From assembly GCA_049589355.1 (NCBI GenBank), contig JBAWAP010000434.1, positions 177 to 64,176 on the forward strand: a stretch of DNA of 64,000 nucleotides, written 5' to 3'. Origin of the DNA: Anaerolineae bacterium (GTDB lineage: Bacteria; Chloroflexota; Anaerolineae; VGOG01). The notes under the pieces were generated by a model. That model saw only the letters and a program-made list of their open reading frames with translations, did no database searches and was not told where the DNA came from. Of this stretch, positions 3,001 through 21,282 are shown piece by piece. Every line of letters starts with the position of its first letter. The first letter of the stretch is position 1. The position numbers were made by a program, and so were the translations under genes.

Positions 3001-6000
3001 TGGGGTGTTCGACGAGGTCAAAACGGCCTTAGCTATCCCGCTAATGGTGGTTTTGGTGATGGTAGTACTGCCGACACTACCTAAGTTTGTAGTAAAGGTC
3101 ACCGCCGTCCCATCAACTACGAAGTGTCCAAACTGATCATTAACTGTAGCGGTGAGATTGGATGTGTATCCACCTACCTGGATACTGGTGGGGTTAGCTA
3201 CCAGTTGCACATCCCAGGCAACGCCTACCATGTCCACGTAAGTGGTTCCTGTCAGAGAATCTACCGTCACCGTGACATTCGCTCTGCGTGATGAGCATCC
3301 CGATCTCAGCGGCGCCGTAGCTATACCATTACAGTTCGTGGTCTTGGTGATGCTGAGCGTCGTAGTGGGGGGAGGTTCGAAGCTGCCGAGATCTGTGGTA
3401 AATGTAACTATCCTGTTGCAGACGGGGTTCTCGCAGGAGTCCTTCACCGTAGCCGTAATGATAGCGGTGGCCAACCCATCAGCCAAGATGGTGGTAGGTG
3501 CGCGGGTGACGGTTAGTAGAGCGGGAGAGCCTGCCGAGACAGTGAGGTTTGAGGTGTCAGTGCCTCGAGGATAAACCCCGGCGACACGCCCCTCGATAAT
3601 CCCGGTTCCCGCCTCGTAGCCATGGAATATCACACTACCAACACCATTGGTGACAACAACAGAGGTAGTGGGTGTAAAAACACCGTATAGCGTGCTGGTA
3701 AAGTTCACCGTCACTGCCGTAGGAACCACAGTTCCCACTACGTTGCTATACTGATCGGTCACTGTGAACTGAAGAGTGCTGGTGACACAGCAGGTGATGG
3801 AGACATCGGTAGGCGTAATGGTCAAGGTGTACGGATCACCGGCCGTAATGGTGATGAGCCCTGTATTTGTAACCGTACTCCCTATAGCCGCAGCCTTAAT
3901 CGTCGCCACCCCCGGCTGCGTCCCAGAGGTCGCCGTGGCCGTGGCCCCGCCGCCTGAGGTAGTCGTACCAGAGCGGAAAGCATCAAGTTCGGTATCACTG
4001 CCTCCTGGTGCAGTCTTTACCGTTACGGTTACTTTCCGGGAGGCAAAACTCAAACCAGTGGTGATTACCCTCTCAATCCAGGCATCAGGCCCTGACATGT
4101 CTATGGTTCTGGTATATGCAGGGTTATTGATAGTAACAGTGACCGCACCTCTGGTGGGATCCTGGTGATAAACGAAGGAGACCGCCGTTCCTGTGAAGTT
4201 CCAAGACGCCCAGGCACCTACAGTATCTGTATGGATGTAAGTAACCCCACCAGCGGTAGCCACCGACCATCCTGGCGCTGTCACTTTGGCCCCATTTTCC
4301 GCTTCCACATACTCGTATGGAACCGAGGCTCTGATCGTAGGAGTGATAGTGAAGCCCACCATGACACCATTGGGCGCAGGATCACCGAAACCGTCATCCA
4401 CATCGGCGGTGAGGGTAGAAGTATATCCGCTAACCTTTATCTTATCGGGATTGGCTGTGACTGTCAGGGTATAAACATGCCGCCCGAAGGTAACACTGGT
4501 TGTGCCCGATACAGGACAGCTAGCACCAGTGACGGTGATATAAGCCGTCTGCGTCGGCACCCCTGCCGGCAACTGCTCCGAAGTAAGCGTCGCCGTGACT
4601 CGGCCACTGATGGTGGTCTTAGTGACCGTCTTGCTACTCAGGTCGCCCAAGCTGGTGGTTAAGGTCACCATCGTGCCATCCTGCACAGGATTGCCGCACT
4701 TATCTTTCACCTCAGCGGTTATAGTCGAGGTGTAGCGGAAGTTAGTCAGTAGAGAGGTGTTCGTATCGGTAACGTAGATCCGTGTCGGGTTGGCATTAAT
4801 CGTCAGGGTATAGCAAGAAGCCGTGGTGACGGTTAGGTTAGACGTGTCAGTAACACTGTATCCGCGGACCGTGCCGGTGATAGTCCCTGTTCCCGAAACC
4901 CAGCCATGGAATATCACACTCCCAGCACCATTTGTGACCACAACGCTGGTAGGCGTAAAGATACCGGATGGCTTGCTGGTGAAATCTACCGTCAGAGTTC
5001 TAGGAACCACCAGCCCTACCTGGTTATTATATCGGTCCGTCACCGTGAACTGGAGGGTGCTGGTGACACAGCAGGTGATGGAGACGTTACTAGGCGTGAT
5101 GGTCAAGGTGTACGGATTGCCAGACGTGAGGGTGATGGGCACTCTATCTGTCACCACCCTGGCGGTTTCACAGCACGGCCTTCCCACACCCGTGGCCTCA
5201 ACTATCACTACCCCTGCCTGCGTCCCCGAAGTCAGCACAGCCGTGGCCTTCCCTCCTGAGGTACTCACACCAGAGCGGAAGGCGTCTACGTAGACGCGCT
5301 TATCCGTGCCCCCGGTCACAGTGTACCCAGCTACCGTCACCGTTATGACGTGTGGTCCGGACTTTAAGGCGTGGGTGATAACATGCTCAACTTGATATTG
5401 TGGCGACGAGGTGTACATGTCAATGGTGATGGGCAAGCCGCTATCAACGGTGACAGTGGCGACACCGGCATCAGACAACTTTGGATACATCAGGGAAACC
5501 GCCGTCCCTGTGAAGTTCCAACTGGCGGTAGCTCCGGCAGTGGTGCTAGAGATGACTTCTCCACCGTGATAGAGGGGATTGGTGCCCGTGCTCCACGAGC
5601 TCGATTTGATCACCTCAGGGTCTTCACCCTCCACCAGCTCGTATGGAAGGGTGATCCAGGCACTGTTCTCATCGGTCACGATGAAGCTAACCATGGTACA
5701 ATTGGGCACATATTCGCCAAACTGATCCCTTACTGTAGCTTCAAGGGTGGAGGTAGAAGTCCTATCTGCCGCAATCTGATTGGGATTGGCTGTGACCGTC
5801 ACGCTGTTAGGAAAACTCGCCGTCATCTTAACCAACTTCGTGCCAGTTATCATGTAGGGAATAGAGGGGTCACCGCTAAGAGCGGTCACCGTAGCGTCTT
5901 CCGATCCGCATGACAAAAGAGTCGAGGTCAGGGTAGCCGTGCCTTGGCCATTCGCATCAGTCGTGGCCCCGCAGCGGAAGGCATCGACCCGAATGCAGGT

Positions 6001-10805: not shown

Positions 10806-12170
10806 TCAAGAAGACCGTCTCTGCCAAAGCAACAAAGCCAAGAGGACCAATACCACTGCTACAAAAACATAACCTGCGATAACCCAAAAAGGTCTTGTAC
10901 CCTCCGTGGTGCCTGAAGTGGCAGTGGGTACGGGGGTAAACATTGGCATCAGTGCGGTTGTCGGTGTTGGCAATACTGTTGCCGGAGTGATAGATGGTGA
11001 CGTCACCGCGGCTGTAGCTGGCATTAGGGTGGTTGTAGGCAGAGCTGTGGCCAAGGTTGGCGTTAGTGATACCTCTGTGGCCGTCGGCAGCGCTGGAGTC
11101 GGTGTCAGTGTCGGCTGTTCCGGTGCCAGTGTTGGTGTAGGCGGCATCGGGGTTGGATATGGCTGCTCCGGTGTAAGTGTCGGCGTCGGAGGCACTGGAG
11201 TTGGCGTCGGCTGCCCCGGCGCTAGTGTTGGCGTAGGTGACGCCGACGTTGGAGTAGGCGTAGGCAGCACCGGATAGGGGTTTGCTGGCCCTGGTGTCGG
11301 TGTAGGAGGCATCGGTGTCGCCGTAGTCGTTGCTGGAATGGATGTAGGGGTGAGAGTCACTGGTGTCGCCGTAGCCGTTGCTGGAATGGGCGTAGGCGTG
11401 GAAGTTGCCTCCTCAGTGGCTGGACTTGCCGAAATAACTGACCAACTTACAATACCGTCAACAGACCCGTCCTTCACGACGAGAGTTCTATACTTGTCTA
11501 CGGGAAAACCAGTCATTAGGTAGTGGGTTATGCTGATGGCCTTCGTCCCTGAGCCAGTAAGAGAAGCCCCCGTGCTGATAACATCCGCATAACCACCATC
11601 TTCTTTCCGAACATCGATCCCTACTACATTTCCTACCATGCCAGCATAATCGAAAATCGCCCAAACGGTCCGAGTCCGAATGCCTTCAATGAACACTGTC
11701 TCTGATGGCCCATCAGGCGCAATGCTCATGCGAAGATTCGTGATTTCGCCTGGCCCACCTGGACGCACGTACCACAATAGAGTCTTGACAGGAAAAAGCC
11801 CAGAATGTATCTGCGTCTGAAAAGCACCGGAAGGAATAGGCCCAGAGGTGTGAGTTATGGTAATGCACTTAGTGCCCGACCCTGTGTACGAATGGGTTTC
11901 GTCATATAAAGCGACACCGCCGGTGTCCCTGACCGCGATTCGCCACTCTTCCCCTTGCATATCAGAGTAATCGAAGACCACGTATACGGTCTCCGTGTCA
12001 ACCGGGAAGAGGATCATATTGGTGCCGTCGCATGAGTCACTCATGTGAAGATTCGTGATCATGCCTTGCTGAGCTGCAAGAGAACTCGCACCCTTCGCCG
12101 CTAGCCCTGCTATCAGCACCACAGTCAACGCCAGTGCTAATCCAACAGTCCGAGAAACCAATCGCCTCAT
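10806..12170 (-). CDS. Membrane-anchored surface protein: two copies of the unrecognised domain, a long Pro/Thr-rich linker and a C-terminal TM anchor
   Basis: Start MRRLVSRTVGLALAL at ATG 12170. Domains at ITNLHMSDSCDG... and ITNLRMSIAPDG.... PT-rich linker of about 150 aa. C-terminal ...FWVIAGYVFVAVVLVLLALLLWQRRSS. Confidence 0.6.
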   Translation of the reverse strand: MRRLVSRTVGLALALTVVLIAGLAAKGASSLAAQQGMITNLHMSDSCDGTNMILFPVDTETVYVVFDYSDMQGEEWRIAVRDTGGVALYDETHSYTGSGTKCITITHTSGPIPSGAFQTQIHSGLFPVKTLLWYVRPGGPGEITNLRMSIAPDGPSETVFIEGIRTRTVWAIFDYAGMVGNVVGIDVRKEDGGYADVISTGASLTGSGTKAISITHYLMTGFPVDKYRTLVVKDGSVDGIVSWSVISASPATEEATSTPTPIPATATATPVTLTPTSIPATTTATPMPPTPTPGPANPYPVLPTPTPTSASPTPTLAPGQPTPTPVPPTPTLTPEQPYPTPMPPTPTLAPEQPTLTPTPALPTATEVSLTPTLATALPTTTLMPATAAVTSPSITPATVLPTPTTALMPMFTPVPTATSGTTEGTRPFWVIAGYVFVAVVLVLLALLLWQRRSS

Positions 12171-12268
12171 AGAATCCCCATTCCCTCCAAACTTGATGCC
12201 AGAACACGATGTCAAGACTCTGGGGCCAAACAACGCATATTATACCATTTTAGCCAAGAGGTGTCAAC

Positions 12269-12706
12269 TTAGGCCAGCCTCATCAGCAAGGCTTCTAATC
12301 CCAAGACGTAGCTTTGCCAGCCGAAGCCCGCTATCTGGCCGAGGCATACGGGGGCGATGACGGAGAGATGCCGAAAATCCTCGCGAGCCTGGATGTTGGA
12401 GAGGTGGACTTCAACGGTAGGCAAGCCAACAGCCGCGATAGCATCGCGAATGGCATAGCTATAATGGGTATAAGCACCAGGGTTGATAACCAAACCATCG
12501 GCCCAGCCAACCGCTTGTTGGATAGTGTCAATGATAGCCCCTTCGTGGTTCGACTGGAAGGTGCGCACTTCGATACCCTTGTCAGCAGCGTAAGCCTGCA
12601 ATCGCTCGTTGATCTCCTCTAGAGTGACCGAGCCGTAAACCTCTGGCTCCCGCGTGCCCAACAAGTTTAGGTTAGGGCCGTGGATAATAAGGATTGTAGT
12701 GCTCAT
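12269..12706 (-). CDS. aroQ: 3-dehydroquinate dehydratase, type II
   Basis: [25 protein letters not shown]...HEGAIID...[16 protein letters not shown]...VEVHLSNI, the type II DHQase signature. Internal ATG start preferred over the ORF-track start at 12847. Confidence 0.9.
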
Positions 12707-14298
12707 CTTTCCCTCAGCTTTTCTAAAACTTCTAAGACTGTTGCCTCTGGTACCTCGTCGGTGACCACGACCTGCCCAATAGCTCTGGGCAATACAAAAC
12801 GCAGCTTCTTTCCTCGCCTCTTTTTGTCGGTGGCCATGGCCTCCCAAACCTCTCTCGGCTTGTAACCTTCATAGTGGGTTGGTAAACCAAATCGTTGGAG
12901 AAGGGGGGCTAAACGCCCCTCAACCTTCTCGTCGCACAGGCCCAGGACGATGGCCGTCCTGGCCGCAGCCACCATGCCGATGCTCACCGCCTCACCGTGG
13001 CGGAGGGTGAAGCCGCTGAGCACCTCCAAGGCGTGGCCAAAGGTGTGGCCCAGGTTGAGCACAGCTCGCTGTCCTCTCTCGTAAGGGTCCTCCTCCACGA
13101 TGGCTACCTTAACTCGGATGGCCTCGGTGATGACATGGAGTGAGGGTTCGTCGCCTCTCTCCTCTAAGCGCTCAAAAAGGCTGGGCGAACCGATCACCCC
13201 TGCCTTGATCACCTCGGCCCACCCGGATCGCATCTCTGCTTCGTCCAGGGTGGTCAGAGCGAGAGAATCAATCAAAACCATCTCTGGCTGTTTGAAAGCG
13301 CCAATGAGATTTTTCCCCCTGGGGTGATCTACGGCCACCTTGCCCCCAATGCTGGCATCCACCATGGCCAGGAGGGTGGTGGGCAACTGTACCAGGGGCA
13401 CCCCTCGCATGTAGGTGGCTGCCGCGAAGCCTGCCATATCGCCGATCACGCCACCGCCCAGGGCCAGCACCGCACCGCTTCGATCCAGCCCACCTTTGAT
13501 GAACTGATCGTACAGGGAGCCGACGGTGTCCAGGGTCTTGTAGGCCTCTCCATCAGGCACCTGGCAGATGGCTGGCTCGAAGCCCGCTTTCTGCAAGCTT
13601 CCGATAACGGTACGGGCGTAAAGATCGCCGACCGTTGGATTGGTGACCAGGGCCACTCTACCCCGCAGTCCCTGCTCGCGCACCAACTCACCAACCCGCG
13701 CCAGAAGCCCCTCGCCCAAATGGATCCTGTAACTTCCCGTTGGCGTCCGCACCGCTATCTTTTCTACAGTCGCCTCACCCCAATCACCTAACAACCTGAT
13801 CACTCTCTCTGCTACCTCCTCCACCGTCAAGCCTGTGGTGTCAATCTGGTGAGGGATGCGGCTATAGGCTTCGCGCCGCTGGGCCAGCAGGGACTCGATG
13901 CGCTCTCTCCGATCAGCCGCGTCCAGGAGCGGCCTGTCTTCTACCTGGGCCAGACGCCGCAAGATTTCCCCAACATCGCAGGTCAGGCATACGAGCAACC
14001 CGCTCGTGCCCAAGGCCTGGCGGCTCTCCTCAGGGATCAGCGCTCTGCCACCAGTGGCGATGACTAGCCCGTGCCTTGTGGCCAACTCCTGGCAAAGCTG
14101 TCGCTCCTGTTGGCGAAAGAACCCCTCGCCCTGTTGAGCGAAGATCTCAGGGATAGCCATACCCACCCGCTCCTCGATGAGGGGGTCCATATCCACAAAC
14201 TCCCGGCCCAACCGCCGGGCCAATTCCAACCCCACCTTCGATTTACCGGTGCCCATGAAGCCGGTGATAACGATGTTTGCACCCCTGTTCACTTCCAC
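12703..14298 (-). CDS. aroK-aroB: Bifunctional shikimate kinase / 3-dehydroquinate synthase (fusion)
   Basis: N-terminal P-loop shikimate kinase ([16 protein letters not shown]). C-terminal DHQ synthase ([45 protein letters not shown]...[11 protein letters not shown]). GTG start. Confidence 0.9.
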
Positions 14299-15467
14299 CT
14301 CGACTTCATCTCCTCGATGCTATCTCCCCCGAGCTTCTCCATCAATGCGTCGGCGATCACCCAGGCGACCATGGCCTCGCCGACTATCGAAGCAGCAGGC
14401 ACGGCACAGACATCAGAGCGCTGATACTGAGTAGTGGCCGGCTCTCCTGTGGCCAGGTCCACCGAACGCAGAGGTGTCACGGTAGTAGGGATAGGTTTCA
14501 TGGCTGCCCGCACCACGATGGGCTGCCCGTTGCTCATCCCACCCTCAATGCCGCCAGCCCTATTGGAGTGACGAGTAACGAGTAACGAGTAACGAGTTTC
14601 CTCATCTCTCATTTCTCGTTCCTCGTTACTCGTTACGAAGATTTCATCGTGCACCTCTGTTCCCAACCTACGAGCATTCTCGAAAGCCGGCCCGATCTCC
14701 AACCCTTTGATGGCCGGAATGCTCATCACCGCGCCAGCCAGGCGAGCGTCCAGGCGACGGTCCCATTGGACGTGGCTACCCAGGCCGACAGGCACGCCGG
14801 TGGCAACGACAACGAAAACGCCGCCCAGGGAGTCCCCCCCTGTCTTGGCCTCGTCAATGCGCTGACGCATGGCCTCTGCGGCGACGGGATCGGGACAGCG
14901 AACGTCGGAGGCTTCTGCCCTCTCCCAGAGTTCGCCCCTCTCGCTCCCCCCCAAAAGTTGGGGGGGGCTGGGGGAGGGCGGGATCTCCGCCACCACGCCA
15001 CCGATTTCGGTCACGTAGCTGCCAACGGAGATGCTGAACTCGGAAAGCAACTGCTTAGCCACTGCCCCCACTGCCACCCGAGCTGCTGTCTCACGAGCAC
15101 TGGCTCGCTCAGCTACCAACCGCAGATCGCCTAGGTTGTACTTGATGGCCCCCGCCAGATCGGCATGGCCTGGCCGAGGTACCGTCCAAGGCGGGATATC
15201 CCTGTCCTTCCAGTTGGCCCAGTCCTTGTTCTCGATGCGTAAGGCGATAGGCGTACCGATGGTCAGGCCCTTGGATACTCCGCTAAGAATCTCGACCTGG
15301 TCACGCTCGATCTTCATGCGCTGACCGCGTCCATAGCCCCCCTGGCGGCGGCGTAGATCAACGTTGATCTCTTCTTCGCTTAGATGAAGCCCAGCCGGCA
15401 TTCCCTCGATGATGGCTGTGAGACAAGGCCCATGAGACTCGCCAGCGGTCAAAAAACGCAACGCCAT
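14289..15467 (-). CDS. aroC: Chorismate synthase, carrying two in-frame palindromic insertions
   Basis: [27 protein letters not shown]...[24 protein letters not shown]. Insertions are encoded by a 7-mer hairpin at 14570..14638 and a C7/G8 palindrome at 14946..14967. Confidence 0.9.
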
Positions 15468-15578
15468 CGCTTACCTCCTCAGAGTCTTAGGCATAATTCA
15501 TGAGACAAAGAGACCTGTTTGAGCAAGCAGCCTACGTGATGCGTAAAACGTGATGCGTGAAAACGGCTTGCTCACGCA

Positions 15579-16517
15579 TCACGGATCACGTTTCACGCAG
15601 AATCTTTGCAGCAGCAAGCCTAAAAGTGTCAAGGACGTTTCCTGCGATTCTGAACTATGCCAAGTTTTGCTAGCAGCCTCGTACATCGTCTCGACAGGTG
15701 CTTTCTCCCCCGTCCACAGTTCGAAAGCCGCAGCTCCCTGGTGGACCAGCATCCCCAAACCGCCGATGCCTTTCGCTCCTGCTTCTCTAGCCTGCCGCAG
15801 AAGCTTGGTCTGGCGAGGATTGTATACCAGGTCGAAGACGGTCAGATGGCCGGGGAAGGCCAGGTCTTCCGGCCAGGGGGATTTGTCTACTTCAGGCCAC
15901 ATGCCGACAGGCGTGGCATTGACCAATAAGTGGGATTCAGTTGCCCGCTCTTTCAATATTTGTAGTGTGAGAGGGAGGGAGAGGAGGGAAAGAGAGGGAA
16001 ACAAGGGGGAGAAATCTTGAACCAGGGCGTGAGCACGGGATGGAGTGCGATTCAGAGCAGTCACCTGCGCCCCGCCCTGGGCCAGGGCGTAGACTACGGC
16101 CCTGGCAGCGCCACCAGCCCCCAGAACCACAGCCCGCTTGCCCTGAGGATCGAAGCCAACCTCGCTTAAGGCAGTCAGGAAGCCTTGCCAGTCGCTGTTG
16201 TACCCGATGCCCTGCCCCTCACGCACCACGATGGTATTGACTGCCCCGATAGCTTGCGCCTCCGGTGTGACTTCGTCGAGATAGGATATCACCGCCTCTT
16301 TGTGAGGTACAGTAACATTGGCCCCCACGAAGTTCAGAGCCCGCAGGCCAGCAACCGCTTCCCCCAACTGCTCAGGATGCACAGGCAAGGGCAGGTAGCA
16401 CCAGTTCAGGTTGAGCGCGGCAAAGGCGCTATTGTGCATGGCTGGCGAGAGGCTGTGCTCGATTGGATAACCTATCAATCCTACGAGCTTCGTCTGGCCA
16501 TTGATGTCCAGTGGCAT
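15579..16517 (-). CDS. aroE: Shikimate dehydrogenase
   Basis: MPLDINGQTKLVGLIGYPIEHSLSPAMHNSAF...NATPVGMWP, AGGAG RBS. The C-terminal residues and stop codon are supplied by the 7-mer hairpin repeat at 15534..15600. Confidence 0.9.
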   Translation of the reverse strand: MPLDINGQTKLVGLIGYPIEHSLSPAMHNSAFAALNLNWCYLPLPVHPEQLGEAVAGLRALNFVGANVTVPHKEAVISYLDEVTPEAQAIGAVNTIVVREGQGIGYNSDWQGFLTALSEVGFDPQGKRAVVLGAGGAARAVVYALAQGGAQVTALNRTPSRAHALVQDFSPLFPSLSLLSLPLTLQILKERATESHLLVNATPVGMWPEVDKSPWPEDLAFPGHLTVFDLVYNPRQTKLLRQAREAGAKGIGGLGMLVHQGAAAFELWTGEKAPVETMYEAASKTWHSSESQETSLTLLGLLLQRFCVKRDP

Positions 16518-16530
16518 GGCTCGCTCTCCT

Positions 16531-17871
16531 TCAGCTCATTAAGGCTCTCAAGATCTCCTCGAAGCCTGGGAATGAATCTGCGATACATTCCGCTCCCTCG
16601 ATTGTTGTTTCCCCTTCGGCTACTAGGCCAGCTATGGCCAGGGACATGGCCAGGCGGTGATCGCCGTGACTGTTGACCTGGGTTCCCACTAGTGTCGTCG
16701 GTCCTTCCACCACGAAGCCGTCATCCCTCTCCTTGATACATGCCCCAAGCTTCCTCAGCTCAGCTACCATGGCCGCGATGCGGTCGGTCTCCTTGACTCT
16801 GAGTTCCGCTGCGTCGCGCACTATCGTCTCCCCCTCCGCCTGGCTGGCAACCACAGCCAAGATGGGGAATTCATCAATCATCCTGGGCACCTGATCACCC
16901 CTCACCTCTATGCCCCTTAGGGCCGAGACCCCGCGCCCTGCCCGCACAACGGCGTCGGCTACTGGCTCGCCGCTGACCTCCTGCTGATTCTCTATCAGGA
17001 TGTCCGCTCCCATCTCCCTCAGCGCGTCCAAGAGGCCCGTGCGGGTGGGGTTAACACCGACGCCTTCGACAACGACTTCCCCCTCCTCTTTTCCCCCCCC
17101 ATGGGGAGGGATGAGGCAAGCGGCAGCGATGAAGTAAGCTGCTGAGGAGATATCCCCTGGCACAACAACGTTCAGAGATGACAACCCTACGCCTCCACGT
17201 AGAGTTATCGTGGAACTTTGAACTTTGAACTTTGAACTTTGAACTTCAATACTTGCGCCCATTGCGGCCAGCATCCGCTCGGTGTGGTCGCGGGCGGGGC
17301 CTGGCTCGTGGATCACCGTTGGGCCATCGGCGTAGAGGCCTGCCAGTAAAATGGCTGACTTCACCTGAGCGCTGGCTACGGGCAGCCTGTACTCGATGCC
17401 GTGCAGATTTCCGCCCAGTATGGTCAAGGGAGGCAGGCGGCCATCGTCGCGACCTAACACAGTTGCCCCCATCCGTCTCAGAGGCTCGACGATGCGGCCC
17501 ATGGGCCGTCGGCGGAGTTGCTCGTTTCCCGTCAGCACGCTGTAGAAGGGCTGGCCAGCCAGAATCCCCGCCAACAAACGCATGGTCGTACCCGAACCAG
17601 CACAGTCCAGGATATCTTTCGGCTCCGTCAAACCATGCAAGCCCTGCCCGTGCACGATCAACTCCGTCTCGGATAGTCTATCTACCTCGACACCTAGCGC
17701 TTGCACACAAGCTAAGGTAGCCAGGCAATCTGCCGCTGGCAGGAAATTCCGGATCCTGGTCGTGCCCTCGGCTATCGCACCCAGCAGCAGAGCGCGATGG
17801 GAAATGGATTTGTCGCCCGGGACTTTGACCCGACCACTCAGACCTCTAGCTTGTTCAACAGTCAGCCTCAT
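16531..17871 (-). CDS. aroA: 3-phosphoshikimate 1-carboxyvinyltransferase (EPSP synthase), with two in-frame repeat-derived insertions
   Basis: MRLTVEQARGLSGRVKVPGDKSISHRALLLGAIAEGTTRI.... Insertions: VQSSKFKVQSS from (GAACTTT)n at 17213..17244, and GGGKEEGEV from a poly-C/poly-G palindrome at about 17089..17125. Confidence 0.9.
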   Translation of the reverse strand: MRLTVEQARGLSGRVKVPGDKSISHRALLLGAIAEGTTRIRNFLPAADCLATLACVQALGVEVDRLSETELIVHGQGLHGLTEPKDILDCAGSGTTMRLLAGILAGQPFYSVLTGNEQLRRRPMGRIVEPLRRMGATVLGRDDGRLPPLTILGGNLHGIEYRLPVASAQVKSAILLAGLYADGPTVIHEPGPARDHTERMLAAMGASIEVQSSKFKVQSSTITLRGGVGLSSLNVVVPGDISSAAYFIAAACLIPPHGGGKEEGEVVVEGVGVNPTRTGLLDALREMGADILIENQQEVSGEPVADAVVRAGRGVSALRGIEVRGDQVPRMIDEFPILAVVASQAEGETIVRDAAELRVKETDRIAAMVAELRKLGACIKERDDGFVVEGPTTLVGTQVNSHGDHRLAMSLAIAGLVAEGETTIEGAECIADSFPGFEEILRALMS

Positions 17872-17884
17872 AGAACTTCAAACC

Positions 17885-18781
17885 CTAAACTTTAAACTTT
17901 AAACCTTGAACTCTGAACTTTGAAGTTTGAAGTTTGACCTTTAAAGTTTGAACGTCGTCCGTCTCTAGCAGGTGGGCGATAGCGTCGAGTTGACGGGCGA
18001 AGCGGGACAACGTCTCTCCCACCGCCTGGCGGTTAGTGAGCAGGATGTCCAGCATCATGGTAACGTCGCTGGCTGCCAGGCGCGAGGTGTCGCGAAAGCC
18101 GCTGGCGGTCAGTCCCCAGACCAGCTCGTCCTCCGCTGCTACCTCCTCAGCGGCAGCCACCAGACCCACCGACAGGAGATAGGGAAGGTGGCTGACAGCG
18201 GCCACCAGGCGGTCGTGGCGCTCGGCGTCCATCAACAAAGGCTGCGCACCTATGGCCTCGACTAGCTCTTGGGCTAGCATTAGCGCTTCCGAACTGGTCC
18301 GCCGCAGGGCTTGCCCTGAGCCCTGTCGAAGGGGAGTAAGCACAAAGGTCGCCCCCTCGTAGAGGTCAGCCTCTGCAGCTTCGATCCCCGACGCCTCCTT
18401 GCCACACATGGGGTGGCCGCCGACGGCTTGAAGGTAGGATGGCAACGCTTTCATGGCTTCGACAATCCTGGCCTTGGTGCTGCCCAAATCCATCAGCAAA
18501 CAGCCAGCGGAAGCAAGGGACCCCACCTGAGGTATAAGCTCCAAGTTGGTCCGCACTGGAGTGGCCAGCACGATCAGGTCGGCTTGCTCCACCCCCTCGG
18601 CCAGGTCACAGGTGCCCACATTGATGAAACCGCGCCTCATGGCTTTCTCGATGGTTTCCTCTCGTCGGGCCACCCCCCATACCTCTCGACAGGAACCTCG
18701 CTTCTTCAAGGCCCCGGCCAGAGACCCACCCATCAGGCCCAGCCCGACGATTGTTACCTGCGCATCTTTCAAACACACCAC
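17885..18781 (-). CDS. tyrA: Prephenate/arogenate dehydrogenase
   Basis: VTIVGLGLMGGSLAGAL...GGHPMCGKE.... GTG start 18781 with GGAGG 5 nt upstream. The ORF-track extension to 18817 and the C-terminal ...KFRVQGLKFKV both come from heptamer repeat DNA. Confidence 0.8.
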   Translation of the reverse strand: MVCLKDAQVTIVGLGLMGGSLAGALKKRGSCREVWGVARREETIEKAMRRGFINVGTCDLAEGVEQADLIVLATPVRTNLELIPQVGSLASAGCLLMDLGSTKARIVEAMKALPSYLQAVGGHPMCGKEASGIEAAEADLYEGATFVLTPLRQGSGQALRRTSSEALMLAQELVEAIGAQPLLMDAERHDRLVAAVSHLPYLLSVGLVAAAEEVAAEDELVWGLTASGFRDTSRLAASDVTMMLDILLTNRQAVGETLSRFARQLDAIAHLLETDDVQTLKVKLQTSKFRVQGLKFKV

Positions 18782-18841
18782 GTTAACCTCCAACTTCCAA
18801 CCTCCAAAGAAGGCCACAGTTTAAGGTTTGAAGTTTGAAGT

Positions 18842-19855
18842 TTAAAGTTTGCGGTCCACTGCTTCTGCCACTCTCCGCAGCTCTCTCACTAACTGGGCAA
18901 ACCTCTCTGGTTTTAGCGATTGGGCTCCGTCGGAGAGGGCTTGCTGGGGATGGGGATGCACTTCGATAAGCAATCCATCGGCGCCGGCGGCCACAGCAGC
19001 TCTGGCTACGGGCCCCACCAACTCCCATCTGCCAGTACCGTGGCTGGGATCAACGATGACCGGCAAGTGGGTCAGTCCCTTAAGGACGGGTACGGCGTTG
19101 ATGTCCAGGGTGTTGCGGGTATACTTTTCGAAGGTGCGGATGCCCCGTTCGCAGAGCATGACCCGGTAGTTGTCGTGGGAGAGGATGTGTTCAGCCGCCA
19201 TGAGAAGTTCCTCCAGAGTGGACATCATCCCTCGCTTGAGGAGGACGGGCATCTTCGACTCGCCCACGGCGTTCAGGAGGCTGAAGTTCTGCATGTTTCG
19301 GGCCCCGACCTGGAGGATGTCGGCATAGCGGGCCACCAGGGGCACGTCTTCGGGGGTCATGACCTCCGTGACGACAGCCAGCCCAGTCTCCTCCTTGACC
19401 TCGGCCAGGATCTCTAAGCCCTCCTTCCCCAGGCCCTGGAAGCTATAGGGGGAGGTGCGCGGTTTGAAGGCTCCGCCGCGCAGAATTCGGACACCCGTCT
19501 CCTTGACCGCCCAAGCCGTCTCTAACAGTTGCTCTCGGCTCTCCACGGCACAGGGCCCGGCCATGACTGTCACTTCCCGTGAGCCGATCTGCATCCCGTT
19601 GATGGGGATGACGGTGTCCTCGGGCTTGAAGTCACGGCTGGCCAGCTTGAAGGGCTGGAGGATGGGCACCGTCCTCTCCACTCCCTCCATCAGTTCGAAG
19701 ACGTGAGGGCTGACAGGCCGCTCATCGCCGATGACGCCGATGATGGTCCGCTCCTCGCCACGGGAGAGGTGGGCCCGAAACCCCATTTCCTCTATCTGAC
19801 CCACTACTCCCCGTATCTCCTCCTCTCCGGCCCCCATTTTCATGATGATGATCAT
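18842..19855 (-). CDS. aroF: 3-deoxy-7-phosphoheptulonate (DAHP) synthase, class I-beta, with an N-terminal regulatory (ACT/ferredoxin-like) domain
   Basis: KDO8PS-like core: [47 protein letters not shown] ... [10 protein letters not shown]. About 80 aa of N-terminal extension, as in Thermotoga-type DAHPS. ATG 19855, AGGAGG RBS. Confidence 0.85.
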
Positions 19856-19937
19856 GATGACCTCCTATCCCAATTGGGATCTGGAGCGCAGGCGCAAGCC
19901 TGCGGACCTGCGTCCGCGCTCTAGCGAGTTTTCCCAT

Positions 19938-20306
19938 CTACCGATGATTTGAAATATCAGGTCGCAACGCTTTCGCTCCCTTGATGTACACGTGTACGAC
20001 TTCATCCTGCCGCTTGTCCGTGTTCCAGTGAATGAGAACCCGGATGCACCTCTCCAAGCTGCCCGGTACGGGAATCTCCTGGGCATCGAGGAGGGCCACA
20101 TCGCGCCAGCCCAGTTCCCGCGCCGCTTGGGCCGGGAAGGCAGCCGTCAGGTCGGGCGTGGTGGTGAAGATGGCGCTGGCTACGTCTTCCACCTTCAAGT
20201 CGTTGGCCTCGACGATGAGCTCCAGGAGCTCCCTGGTGGCGGTCAGAATGGCCTCGGCCGTATTCTTTTCTGCGGTGGTTGCTCCGCGAATGCCTCGGCA
20301 ATACAT
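19938..20306 (-). CDS. aroH: Chorismate mutase, AroH class
   Basis: [32 protein letters not shown]...[31 protein letters not shown] resembles B. subtilis AroH. ATG 20306 with GGGGGG RBS. Confidence 0.85.
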
Positions 20307-20321
20307 CTTTACCCCCCAGAT

Positions 20322-20357
20322 AATCAAAAAAGCGTGGGGCTGTCTGCTCCACGCTTT
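20322..20357 (-). terminator. Intrinsic terminator (attenuator) between the leader peptide and aroH
   Basis: Minus-strand RNA AAAGCGUGG-AGCAGACAGCC-CCACGCUUUUUU: 6-bp GC stem plus A-U extension, then a U6 tract, 15 nt before the aroH start. Confidence 0.7.
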
Positions 20358-20388
20358 CCAAATGCTATTTATGAATCGTTACGATTTA

Positions 20389-20517
20389 ATGATGTGGCGT
20401 CTTCCGGGCATGGAGCAGCTTGCCTGATGCCTTGGCATAGGCGTAATAGTAGGCAAAGTAATCCTCATGCCCAAAGAAACTGAGTTCGATAGCCTCGTCT
20501 CGCAGCTTATTAGCCAT
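20389..20517 (-). CDS. Leader peptide rich in Phe/Tyr (43 aa) of the aromatic amino acid operon
   Basis: MANKLRDEAIELSFFGHEDYFAYYYAYAKASGKLLHARKTPHH has 8 aromatic residues in a 14-residue stretch. AGAGGGG RBS. Lies downstream of the promoter at 20545..20573 and upstream of the terminator. The longer ORF-track version (start 20694) begins upstream of that promoter. Confidence 0.6.
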
Positions 20518-20544
20518 CTCCACCCCTCTCTCAAATCTGGATAT

Positions 20545-20573
20545 ATGATAGCATAAAGGAGGATAAAAGTCAA
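20545..20573 (-). promoter_or_regulatory. Sigma70-like promoter of the attenuated aro operon (TTGACT-N17-TATCAT)
   Basis: Minus strand: -35 TTGACT (20573..20568), 17-nt spacer, -10 TATCAT (20550..20545), about 30 nt upstream of the leader peptide ATG. Confidence 0.55.
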
Positions 20574-20582
20574 ACCTGCGTA

Positions 20583-20990
20583 TTAGTTCACGCCAAGAAC
20601 TACCTCGAAATCCCGAGGCGCACTTGTAACACGCTTGCCAGGATCGGGGACTTGTGGCATACCCCCAGTGCCCGATCTGAACCCAGATTGCCACACTGCG
20701 GGTAGAGTTGCCTTGCCGAGATCATCCACTCGTGAGTGGACCTCATCCAGTGCCAACAGCGACCAAAGCATCGGCACCCAGGAAAAGGCGGCCAGGCAGG
20801 CGGTGGGCCAATCGTGGCCGGCCAGCCAGAAGAAGACGACGGCGCAGCCGATCAGCCAGACGAGGAAAGCCGCGGTGCGCAGTGGGCCAGTGAGGGTCAC
20901 TTCGAAAAAGAAGAGGATCACTACCAGGGCGTATCCCAGCCAGGGGGCTGACCAGCGGGGCCAGCGCCGCCACCAGGCATAAGTGGTCAC
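20583..20990 (-). CDS. Hypothetical membrane protein, possibly truncated at its N-terminus by repeat copy 1
   Basis: Hydrophobic ORF (LGYALVVILFFFEVTL..., FLVWLIGCAVVFFWLAG). The start abuts the repeat at 21004. Confidence 0.3.
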   Translation of the reverse strand: MTTYAWWRRWPRWSAPWLGYALVVILFFFEVTLTGPLRTAAFLVWLIGCAVVFFWLAGHDWPTACLAAFSWVPMLWSLLALDEVHSRVDDLGKATLPAVWQSGFRSGTGGMPQVPDPGKRVTSAPRDFEVVLGVN

Positions 20991-21003
20991 CGCCAGGCAG
21001 ATG

Positions 21004-21096
21004 ACAGTGGAAACCCTTGCAAGTCAACCACCAGTATGATGCCCAGCCCGAAAAGCAAGAGCGGGGGGTGTCTTAGACCTCCCGCTTTGGTTTTAG
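21004..21096 (-). repeat. Terminator-promoter repeat, copy 1 (degenerate: -35 and an imperfect hairpin only)
   Basis: aaacccttgcaagtcaaccaccagtatgatgcccagcccgaaaagcaagagcggggggtgtcttagacctcccgctttggtttt aligns with the other copies but lacks the TATAAT half. Confidence 0.6.
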
Positions 21097-21282
21097 CCCC
21101 TTTTCAGCGAGGCCAGAATTGGACCTGAAAGGATCGGGATTGAAATCATCCGATTGCACCACAAGAACAGGCCGGCGATACCCTGGCTCTGAACCCACTG
21201 GCTCAGGCAGCGTGGCCCACCAGATCTCCCCGCGCCGAATCACCACGTTTCCCCCACAGAAGCCAGTTGGATGTGTACCCAA
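21073..21282 (-). pseudogene. MazF/PemK-family toxin fragment, C-terminally truncated with tail ...KREV supplied by repeat copy 1
   Basis: RRGEIWWATLPEPVGSEPGYRRPVLVVQSDDFN is the MazF N-terminal half. The ORF ends inside the repeat, only about 69 aa against ~110 for MazF. Confidence 0.55.

Follow-up and report, generated by a model that had tools for sequence, protein, structure and literature searches.

The aroH leader region of an Anaerolineae contig

The 64,000-nt stretch of contig JBAWAP010000434.1 from an Anaerolineae bacterium (hereafter the window, meaning the whole stretch that was analyzed) carries on its minus strand a putative operon for aromatic amino-acid biosynthesis, which opens with aroH, the gene for an AroH-type chorismate mutase, and is preceded by a leader region holding a short open reading frame (ORF) rich in Phe and Tyr codons. 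A first-pass annotation, made from the sequence alone, had proposed that this leader is a ribosome-mediated transcription attenuator. All the elements of such a device are indeed found in order on the minus strand, namely a promoter, a Shine–Dalgarno (SD) sequence, the leader ORF, three mutually exclusive pairings, a hairpin followed by U6, and aroH. Numbering the pairing segments of the leader RNA as regions 1 to 4, with 1:2, 2:3 and 3:4 denoting the helices between them, the features are:

20573-20568 and 20550-20545, minus strand: -35 and -10 boxes of a sigma-70-type promoter, TTGACT-N17-TATCAT, agreeing with the consensus at 10 of 12 positions and extended by an upstream TG
20528-20523, minus strand: leader SD GAGGGG, 5 nt ahead of the ATG, seen in the sequence itself
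20517 (ATG) to 20388-20386 (TAA), minus strand: leader ORF of 43 codons, MANKLRDEAIELSFFGHEDYFAYYYAYAKASGKLLHARKTPHH
20478-20437, minus strand: regulatory codon block F14-Y27 (FFGHEDYFAYYYAY), with 8 Phe/Tyr in 14 codons
20472-20463, minus strand: region 1, GGGCAUGAGG, with the segment 1 core GGGCAUGAG(G); 5′ strand of the anti-antiterminator, pairing with 20415-20406
20457-20419, minus strand: upper hairpin of 1:2, UUUGCCU...AGGCAAG plus an apical GCC/GGC helix, which holds the Tyr codons
20418-20406, minus strand: region 2 as a whole, CUGCUCCAUGCCC, codons L34-L35-H36-A37, alternating between regions 1 and 3
20415-20406, minus strand: segment 2, CUCCAUGCCC, the partner of region 1
20418-20408, minus strand: segment 2′, CUGCUCCAUGC, the partner of region 3
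20357-20326, minus strand: intrinsic terminator 3:4 with U6, AAAGCGUGG-AGCAGACAGCC-CCACGCUUUUUU, a 9-bp stem of -18.0 kcal/mol, separated from the leader stop by a 28-nt spacer
20354-20344, minus strand: region 3, GCGUGGAGCAG, the terminator 5′ arm and part of its loop, forming an 11-bp antiterminator with region 2
20317-20312, minus strand: aroH SD GGGGGG, followed by the aroH ATG at 20306, 19 nt past the last U of the terminator
19938-20317 including the SD, minus strand: aroH, AroH-type chorismate mutase of 122 aa (PF07736, E = 1.9e-49), the first regulated gene

The promoter stands as the first-pass annotation had given it, and its -35 and -10 boxes are almost unchanging in 27 relatives, among which similarity is lost a few bases upstream of the -35 box; transcription would start near 20538, about 7 nt past the -10 box. 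The interval between the terminator and aroH, of only 19 nt, contains no second promoter. The SD is likewise conserved, with alignment positions G46 and G49 invariant among the relatives. The leader ORF and its aromatic block lie at the place first proposed, and in a six-frame scan of the window F14-Y27 is the sole site with at least 8 F/Y in 14 codons. Thus, the 5′ leader of this biosynthetic operon has its own SD, a start codon and 43 translatable codons, as is typical of an attenuator. Two program-called ORFs overlap it on the same strand, one of 102 aa (GTG start, 20386-20694) and the other of 64 aa (TTG start, 20379-20573). Both are artefacts because their starts fall upstream of, or within, the promoter; the N-terminal extension of the ORF starting at 20694 had already been called untranslated, and these calls give way to the 43-codon leader, whose 43-aa product matches the NCBI annotation WBW48_24295. 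In the databases, the exact leader peptide and the 34 homologues detected carry the name "hypothetical protein" or none. A scan of the window for further leader-peptide attenuators yielded no credible candidate.

Mutually exclusive pairings and their energetics

Region 1 follows the FF codons and precedes the YFAYYYAY run, and the aromatic codons are enclosed in the 1:2 hairpin. The 11-bp pairing of segment 2′ with the terminator 5′ arm exists as first described, though its coordinates had been given one base off. For segments 1 and 2 the pairing itself was correctly recognized, but the clean helix of 9-10 bp was not borne out for the window, where 7 bp are followed by an A·C mismatch and 2 bp; in the relatives the same helix is a perfect 10 bp. 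The GC hairpin with U6 ahead of aroH has the arms AAAGCGUGG/CCACGCUUU, and this terminator motif occurs once in the window against an expectation of 0, a search for a second copy having found none.

The leader folds more stably than its shuffled versions (z = -3.2), and the 2:3 duplex, at -21.9 kcal/mol, is strongly favored over dinucleotide shuffles (z = -5.9). As local hairpins, 1:2, 2:3 and 3:4 reach -25.5, -23.6 and -18.0 kcal/mol, respectively, and the whole-leader folds with 1:2 plus 3:4 (-66.2 kcal/mol) or with 2:3 (-68.9 kcal/mol) are nearly isoenergetic. Because the three pairings are this close in energy, the antiterminator can compete with the terminator both locally (-23.6 vs -18.0 kcal/mol) and globally (-68.9 vs -66.2 kcal/mol), which answers the folding check that the first-pass annotation had set for its own proposal. 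Furthermore, the antiterminator excludes the terminator and is itself sequestered by a segment that overlaps or adjoins the regulatory codons, an arrangement characteristic of attenuators. In the full-length folds of the window leader, the SD region at 20518-20532 (GAGAGGGGUGG) also pairs with region 4 and the U-tract at 20326-20338 (CCCCACGCUUUUUU), which stabilizes the antiterminator fold; this pairing is absent from the consensus fold of the clade and is probably incidental.

Comparative evidence for translation and for the pairings

Relatives were collected with the AroH protein as query, giving 80 loci from species-representative genomes and 80 metagenome loci. The nearest come from Anaerolineae metagenome-assembled genomes (MAGs), and the farther ones from Chloroflexus, Oscillochloris, Caldilineales, other Chloroflexota and Planctomycetota. 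For the clade of the window we aligned 27 leaders and scored helix pairing over 28 sequences. Counted between the conserved start (ATG) and stop codons, the 27 ORFs measure 123, 132, 144, 153, 156, 165, 171 or 177 nt, and each of the seven distinct length differences is divisible by 3; the spacer behind the stop varies by indels of 1-4 nt. The N-terminal dozen residues are freely variable, while the aromatic block accepts only exchanges for other aromatics (Y-to-F in L010 and L092). Hence, the leader ORF is in all likelihood translated. An in-frame, hairpin-forming insert of 21 nt, GCCGCCGCGACGTCAYGTGATGAAGCGGC, read as AAATSxDEAA, is seen between the Tyr run and region 2 of some relatives, as a single copy in L003, L011, L101 and L116 and as two copies in L084; the insert makes the loop of hairpin 1:2 longer and leaves the frame intact.

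Within this clade, pairing in the 1:2 helix, inner extensions included, amounts to 95% over the 28 sequences, and three of its pairs are changed on both sides, a number equalled or exceeded in 1 of 500 shuffles. One of the three is the window's own, GGGC-A-UG/CA-U-GCCC in place of the G-C of its relatives, at the price of an Arg of the peptide becoming His. For 2:3 the paired share is 98.4%, with every substitution in region 2 of the relatives keeping a G-C or G-U pair with region 3, and the 3:4 stem is 100% paired and has behind it, in the window as in its clade, a canonical U5-U7 tract. RNAalifold, run without hints, returned as the consensus a long 1:2 hairpin plus the terminator, with the aromatic codons embedded in the hairpin. 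The 1:2 complementarity exceeds that of shuffles in 17 of 25 leaders of this clade.

The signal for 2:3 extends across clades. The 3′ part of the ORF is complementary to the terminator 5′ arm and loop beyond dinucleotide shuffles (p <= 0.05) in 69 of 81 non-redundant leaders, and the residues "HA" (CAC GCN) and "SLR" (UCG CUU CGC; UCGCUUCGC) in the peptides are traces of these pairing segments. The variable loops of the terminators and the 5′ half of region 2 change in concert, as in GCAG/CUGC, GCGAUG/CAUCGC, GACGG/CCGUC, AAUGGCGAC/GUCGCCAUU and ACCAGG/CCUGGU. When regions 2 were confronted with 50 distinct terminator arms in a swap test, cognate combinations averaged -21.1 kcal/mol vs -16.8 kcal/mol for non-cognate ones (permutation p ~ 1e-4, which is optimistic for related sequences). 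This complementarity between clades appears to us the stronger evidence, outweighing that from the helices within the clade.

Footprint simulation and proposed mechanism

To follow the switch along the ORF, a ribosome footprint of 29 nt was set on each codon in turn and the partition function computed. The 5′ untranslated region (UTR) was kept from pairing, and the RNA was cut off where the G+C stem ends, since the U-tract would still be in the polymerase hybrid at the time of the decision. For the relatives L002, L091 and L081, dominance of the antiterminator is limited to A-site positions at codons ~11-23 (FF...YFAYY), and the terminator prevails elsewhere and without a ribosome. The window shows the same pattern for as long as the ribosome is on the ORF, while its ribosome-free and at-stop states vary with the U residues allowed to pair, these states being borderline because its 1:2 helix carries the A·C mismatch. 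Stalls on Y24-Y27 relieve termination only partly at equilibrium, and the effective sensor codons in the model are F14, F15, Y20, F21 and Y23. Seven further independent clades give the expected profile. A simulation in which the whole U-tract and the 5′ UTR could pair was set aside as misleading, for it gave a long-range 5′ UTR–region 4 pairing in the window and an invariable terminator in L091 and L006.

The comparative data, namely the conservation, the maintained frame, the compensatory changes and the swap test, strongly support the first proposal: the element is very probably a transcription attenuator of the classical, ribosome-mediated kind that monitors the supply of charged tRNA-Phe and tRNA-Tyr. 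What bears on this directly is the set of sequence elements, their conservation alongside the regulated genes, the coding constraint, the compensatory and co-varying pairings and the balanced energetics. From these we infer the transcription start, termination in vivo, the stalling of ribosomes and the coupling of transcription to translation, as well as a role for Phe, Tyr or both.

In the proposed mechanism, a ribosome would load on the 43-codon leader ORF once the transcript has started. With Phe and Tyr plentiful, it would pass the aromatic block and either cover region 2 (codons 34-37) or let region 2 re-pair with region 1 behind it; polymerase would meanwhile make regions 3 and 4, and the 3:4 hairpin with U6 would stop transcription 19 nt before aroH. 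Were charged tRNA-Phe or tRNA-Tyr scarce, the ribosome would stall at F14/F15 or Y20-Y23, with its footprint masking region 1 and opening the long 1:2 hairpin. Region 2, so freed, would take region 3 upon its emergence (11 bp), and in place of a terminator there would be read-through into aroH and the genes for 3-deoxy-D-arabino-heptulosonate 7-phosphate (DAHP) synthase, TyrA and the shikimate pathway. If the leader were not translated at all, 1:2 and 3:4 would both form and transcription would terminate.

Distribution across Chloroflexota and two architectures

As aromatic mini-ORFs we counted short ORFs in which 10 codons include at least 5 for F/Y/W and which lie within 400 nt upstream of aroH. 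Such ORFs precede aroH in 54 of 59 assessable Chloroflexota species genomes and in 0 of 18 from Planctomycetota. Hence, the comparative check suggested by the first-pass annotation comes out in its favor, with both the aromatic-rich ORF and the complementarity present in relatives across most of the phylum. The leader peptides of different clades are unrelated except for the aromatic run, as illustrated by ...REDYFAYYYAYAQASGKLLHARRTPHP in Anaerolineae, MVGSRFYTYFFYFTSRKPDWSLRISWR in Chloroflexus, MPILANSFSYYWFTSLHTAWLLRTV in Oscillochloris and ...VFYFGFYFYFWGFMNPSHARVRPVMVG in the Anaerolineae MAG locus L074. Wherever the locus sequence is long enough, a DAHP synthase gene is always among those following the leader and aroH, and the codons enriched in the leader are those for the products of the pathway, Phe and Tyr, again as in known attenuators. 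The remaining downstream genes differ: Chloroflexus has aroH-DAHP synthase only, and L074 has aroH-pheA followed by two DAHP synthase genes. Judging from these gene orders, the regulated core that is conserved consists of chorismate mutase and DAHP synthase, to which the clade of the window added the common pathway and tyrA. A tendency for Tyr-rich leaders to accompany tyrA and Phe-rich ones pheA is weak and phylogenetically confounded (p = 0.05 and 0.13), and we do not claim it.

The leaders fall into two architectures. Type A, found in the window, other Anaerolineae and Caldilineales, has a long ORF with the aromatic codons inside hairpin 1:2; its region 1, GGCGYGRG, often read W-R-G or G-R-E, is found within the aromatic run or immediately 5′ of it, and its region 2 starts ~17 nt past the final aromatic codon, with 16-26 nt left between its end and the stop. 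Type B, found in Chloroflexaceae and Oscillochloris, has an ORF of 22-27 codons whose region 2 ends at or overlaps the stop codon, so that a terminating ribosome would mask region 2 directly; its terminator combines a very strong stem (median -26 kcal/mol) with a weak U-tract, e.g., CCCUCUCUGUUUG. A region 1 candidate for type B in Chloroflexaceae, CGAAGCG upstream of the ORF, fails to beat shuffles and thus lacks statistical support.

We lean towards seeing in the two types a single ancient family of Phe/Tyr-sensing leader-peptide attenuators that has gone undescribed so far, extends through the phylum Chloroflexota (Anaerolineae, Caldilineales, Chloroflexaceae and Oscillochloridaceae) and always stands before aroH and DAHP synthase. 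If functional, the family would provide an annotated handle on the regulation of aromatic amino acids in a large, mostly uncultured group. It would also be indirect evidence of tight coupling between transcription and translation in these deep-branching bacteria, in which ribosomes would follow RNA polymerase closely enough for attenuation. The type B version is carried by the cultured Chloroflexus and Oscillochloris, which makes direct tests feasible.

Several loci have additional features around the leader. Insertions of 70-165 nt lie exactly between the terminator and the aroH SD in L010 (3836-4000), L090, L086, L083 (2353-2500), L095, L097, L096 and L011; some are palindromic repeats rich in C6/G6, and others have the long terminal inverted repeats CTCACCCTCCCGCAGG...CCTGCGGGAGGGTGG. 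They look like small mobile elements or ones of the repetitive extragenic palindromic (REP) type for which this position is tolerable. In L074 a cobalamin riboswitch (68 bits; 3265-3445, minus strand) sits just upstream of the aroH leader and is unrelated to the attenuator. In the Chloroflexus MAG locus L017 (3137-3748), a response regulator with an ANTAR RNA-binding domain is encoded upstream of the leader. ANTAR proteins are antiterminators; this neighbor is probably coincidental because it is not kept in other clades.

Points against attenuation and alternative explanations

Certain observations weigh against the attenuator interpretation. At equilibrium, the probability of the antiterminator in the ribosome-free window leader ranges from 0.98 to 0.01 depending on the pairing allowed to the U-tract, and the window copy may accordingly be leaky or reliant on kinetics. 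In clades with G+C stems of 11-13 bp, equilibrium folding always returns the terminator; the model saturates there, a limit that equilibrium treatment shows when the decision modelled is a kinetic one, and it was therefore replaced by the complementarity-versus-shuffle and swap tests. The permutation p-values of those tests are optimistic because the sequences are phylogenetically related. Within the close clade, neither 2:3 nor 3:4 shows double changes: regions 3 and 4 are nearly invariant, and hence there are only single, wobble-compatible ones. Across clades, the 1:2 complementarity beats shuffles in just 29 of 81 leaders. Further, a ribosome at the stop codon of the window leader leaves region 2, which ends 18 nt upstream, uncovered, so that termination under repletion would need either timing or the re-pairing of 1:2. 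Lastly, the mechanism presumes that transcription and translation are coupled in Chloroflexota.

The same hairpins could in principle be set by something other than a translating ribosome. A trans-acting factor, such as a TRAP- or PyrR-like protein, an uncharged tRNA acting as in a T-box, or a small molecule binding an aptamer, would leave the ORF incidental, and competition between terminator and antiterminator by itself needs no translation; the statistical weakness of the 1:2 helix in Chloroflexaceae and the ANTAR gene upstream of the Chloroflexus leader would fit such a scheme. It does not account for a frame kept through seven independent length differences, for an aromatic codon run as the sole feature common to otherwise unrelated clade leaders, or for a footprint simulation that puts the switch exactly on the aromatic codons, and the ANTAR gene is not conserved in other clades. 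The Rfam searches speak to the RNA-based versions. With E <= 10 over 19800-21200 of the window they gave no leader family, T-box (RF00230) or riboswitch, only noise such as L20_leader (E = 0.42) on the terminator hairpin, and at the gathering threshold nine relatives had no match at the position of the leader. The T-box and riboswitch readings were rejected on these grounds, and we regard a trans-acting factor as very improbable overall.

It is, in turn, a slightly less remote prospect, if still an improbable one, that translation of the leader regulates by Rho-dependent polarity, mRNA stability or translational coupling and reinitiation in place of intrinsic termination. This is conceivable for type B, given the poor U-tracts behind very strong stems in Chloroflexaceae, and reinitiation has been proposed for leader genes in some phyla (PMC4833913). 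Yet the window and its clade have the canonical U5-U7 tract, the terminator stands clear of the aroH SD, and the 79 nt from the leader stop codon to the aroH start are too distant for reinitiation; moreover, none of these modes predicts the co-varying complement of the terminator arm in 2:3, which is exactly what an antiterminator needs. The least probable alternative, to which we give hardly any credence, makes the mini-ORF a functional small protein, e.g., a membrane peptide or the precursor of a peptide made by the ribosome and modified after translation (RiPP), placed by chance upstream of aroH and ended by the hairpin as its own terminator. It would agree with the probable translation of the ORF and its being called as a gene for a hypothetical protein in the databases, but the peptide is unconserved between clades save for its aromatic richness and the residues dictated by RNA pairing ("HA" from CACGC and "SLR" from UCGCUUCGC), and Pfam and NCBIfam scans of six leader peptides found no family. 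Nor is a separate promoter for aroH present in the 19 nt behind the terminator, and the association with aroH and DAHP synthase is constant throughout the phylum. Ribosome-mediated attenuation is the reading that we retain.

Relationship to known attenuation systems

Attenuation by trpL, pheL and pheM of Escherichia coli is a textbook mechanism, and what is known of leader-peptide attenuation in general comes mostly from Proteobacteria and Actinomycetota, with Firmicutes largely using T-box or protein-based systems. The mechanism proposed here is itself known; what is new is apparently the phylum-wide conserved and unannotated group in Chloroflexota. The searchable full-text literature, whose coverage excluded the broad attenuator survey PMID 20198868, contained no leader-peptide attenuator of aromatic genes from this phylum. 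For Actinobacteria, a 2005 survey (PMC1262725) reported finding none of this kind for Phe/Tyr genes.

Among the systems described, the nearest is aroR-aroF of Corynebacterium glutamicum, where, according to the account of Neshat 2014 given in PMC11802643, a leader with Phe-Tyr-Phe lies upstream of the aroF (DAHP synthase) operon and read-through rises under limitation for Phe and not Tyr. As far as that account goes, the two systems share a ribosome-dependent attenuator, a short Phe/Tyr leader, an operon including DAHP synthase and read-through upon stalling. They differ in that the present leaders belong to Chloroflexota rather than Actinomycetota, have longer aromatic runs (5-9 of 10 codons) and precede an AroH-type chorismate mutase as the first gene; the window operon, unlike that of aroF, also reaches tyrA and the whole shikimate pathway. 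With aroR compared by its description alone, the resemblance would be functional, and homology is unlikely because of the distance between the phyla and the lack of peptide conservation even within Chloroflexota.

The gamma-proteobacterial pheL-pheA and pheM-pheST (PMC3082878) resemble the window in their run of aromatic codons, the 1:2/2:3/3:4 logic and a terminator before a gene containing a chorismate mutase. However, pheL and pheM encode Phe only, in ~15 codons with the stop beside region 2, and are covered by the Rfam family Phe_leader, whereas the window has 43 codons of mixed Phe/Tyr type, aromatic codons inside 1:2 and a stop 18 nt beyond region 2, and matches nothing in Rfam. With trpL-trpEDCBA of E. 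coli, the subject of the Yanofsky model, it shares the four segments, a region 1 over the regulatory codons, a region 2 that switches partners, termination in the absence of translation and ~70-90 nt between a ribosome covering region 2 and the point of termination; trpL senses a different amino acid, and there the ribosome at the stop codon masks region 2, as in type B but not type A. The Firmicutes T-boxes (Tyr/Phe/Trp) and TRAP play the same role, with aromatic supply setting the terminator or antiterminator before aro genes, including AroH-type operons. What they sense is an uncharged tRNA or, via a protein, Trp; in the window there is neither a T-box match nor a visible array of (G/U)AG repeats.

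The aro operon downstream

The genes behind aroH form the rest of the putative operon:

12269-19855, minus strand: DAHP synthase, tyrA, aroA, aroE, aroC, an aroK-aroB fusion and aroQ (Pfam)

By Pfam the order, beginning with aroH, is chorismate mutase, DAHP synthase, prephenate dehydrogenase, 5-enolpyruvylshikimate-3-phosphate synthase, shikimate dehydrogenase, chorismate synthase, the shikimate kinase/dehydroquinate synthase fusion and type II dehydroquinase, which agrees with the content of chorismate mutase, DAHP synthase, TyrA and common shikimate pathway given by the first-pass annotation. The operon has neither pheA nor trp genes, and pheA is absent from the whole window. Directly past the aroQ stop, at 12267-12239 on the minus strand, lies a perfect consensus promoter, TTGACA-17-TATAAT with a TG extension, and the unit is therefore taken to comprise eight genes; the gene behind this promoter (10806-12233) encodes a protein of 475 aa without a Pfam match. 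The genes of the unit are closely spaced and its strand shows no excess of terminator-like sites, and from the spacing the attenuator would govern the whole eight-gene operon.

Two internal gaps with strong hairpins limit this claim. The 82-nt gap between aroH and the DAHP synthase gene (19856-19937, minus strand) folds with ~-40 kcal/mol and contains a very stable G+C-rich hairpin (GAGCGCGGACGCAGGUCCGCAGGCUUGCGCCUGCGCUC) that has no U-tract and may be a stabilizer or a REP-like element. The 111-nt gap between aroE and aroC (15468-15578, minus strand) has a 13-bp hairpin, GUGAUGCGUGAGC...UCACGCAUCAC, followed by GUUUUA, perhaps a processing site or a partial terminator internal to the operon; the motif ACGCATCACGT is directly repeated there.

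The DAHP synthase (18842-19855, minus strand) bears an N-terminal ferredoxin-like regulatory domain (PF18152), and hence the pathway is probably subject to allosteric feedback besides attenuation. The regulatory logic of aromatic synthesis in this major environmental phylum would then comprise the sensing of tRNA charging atop allosteric control through the ferredoxin-like domain of DAHP synthase.

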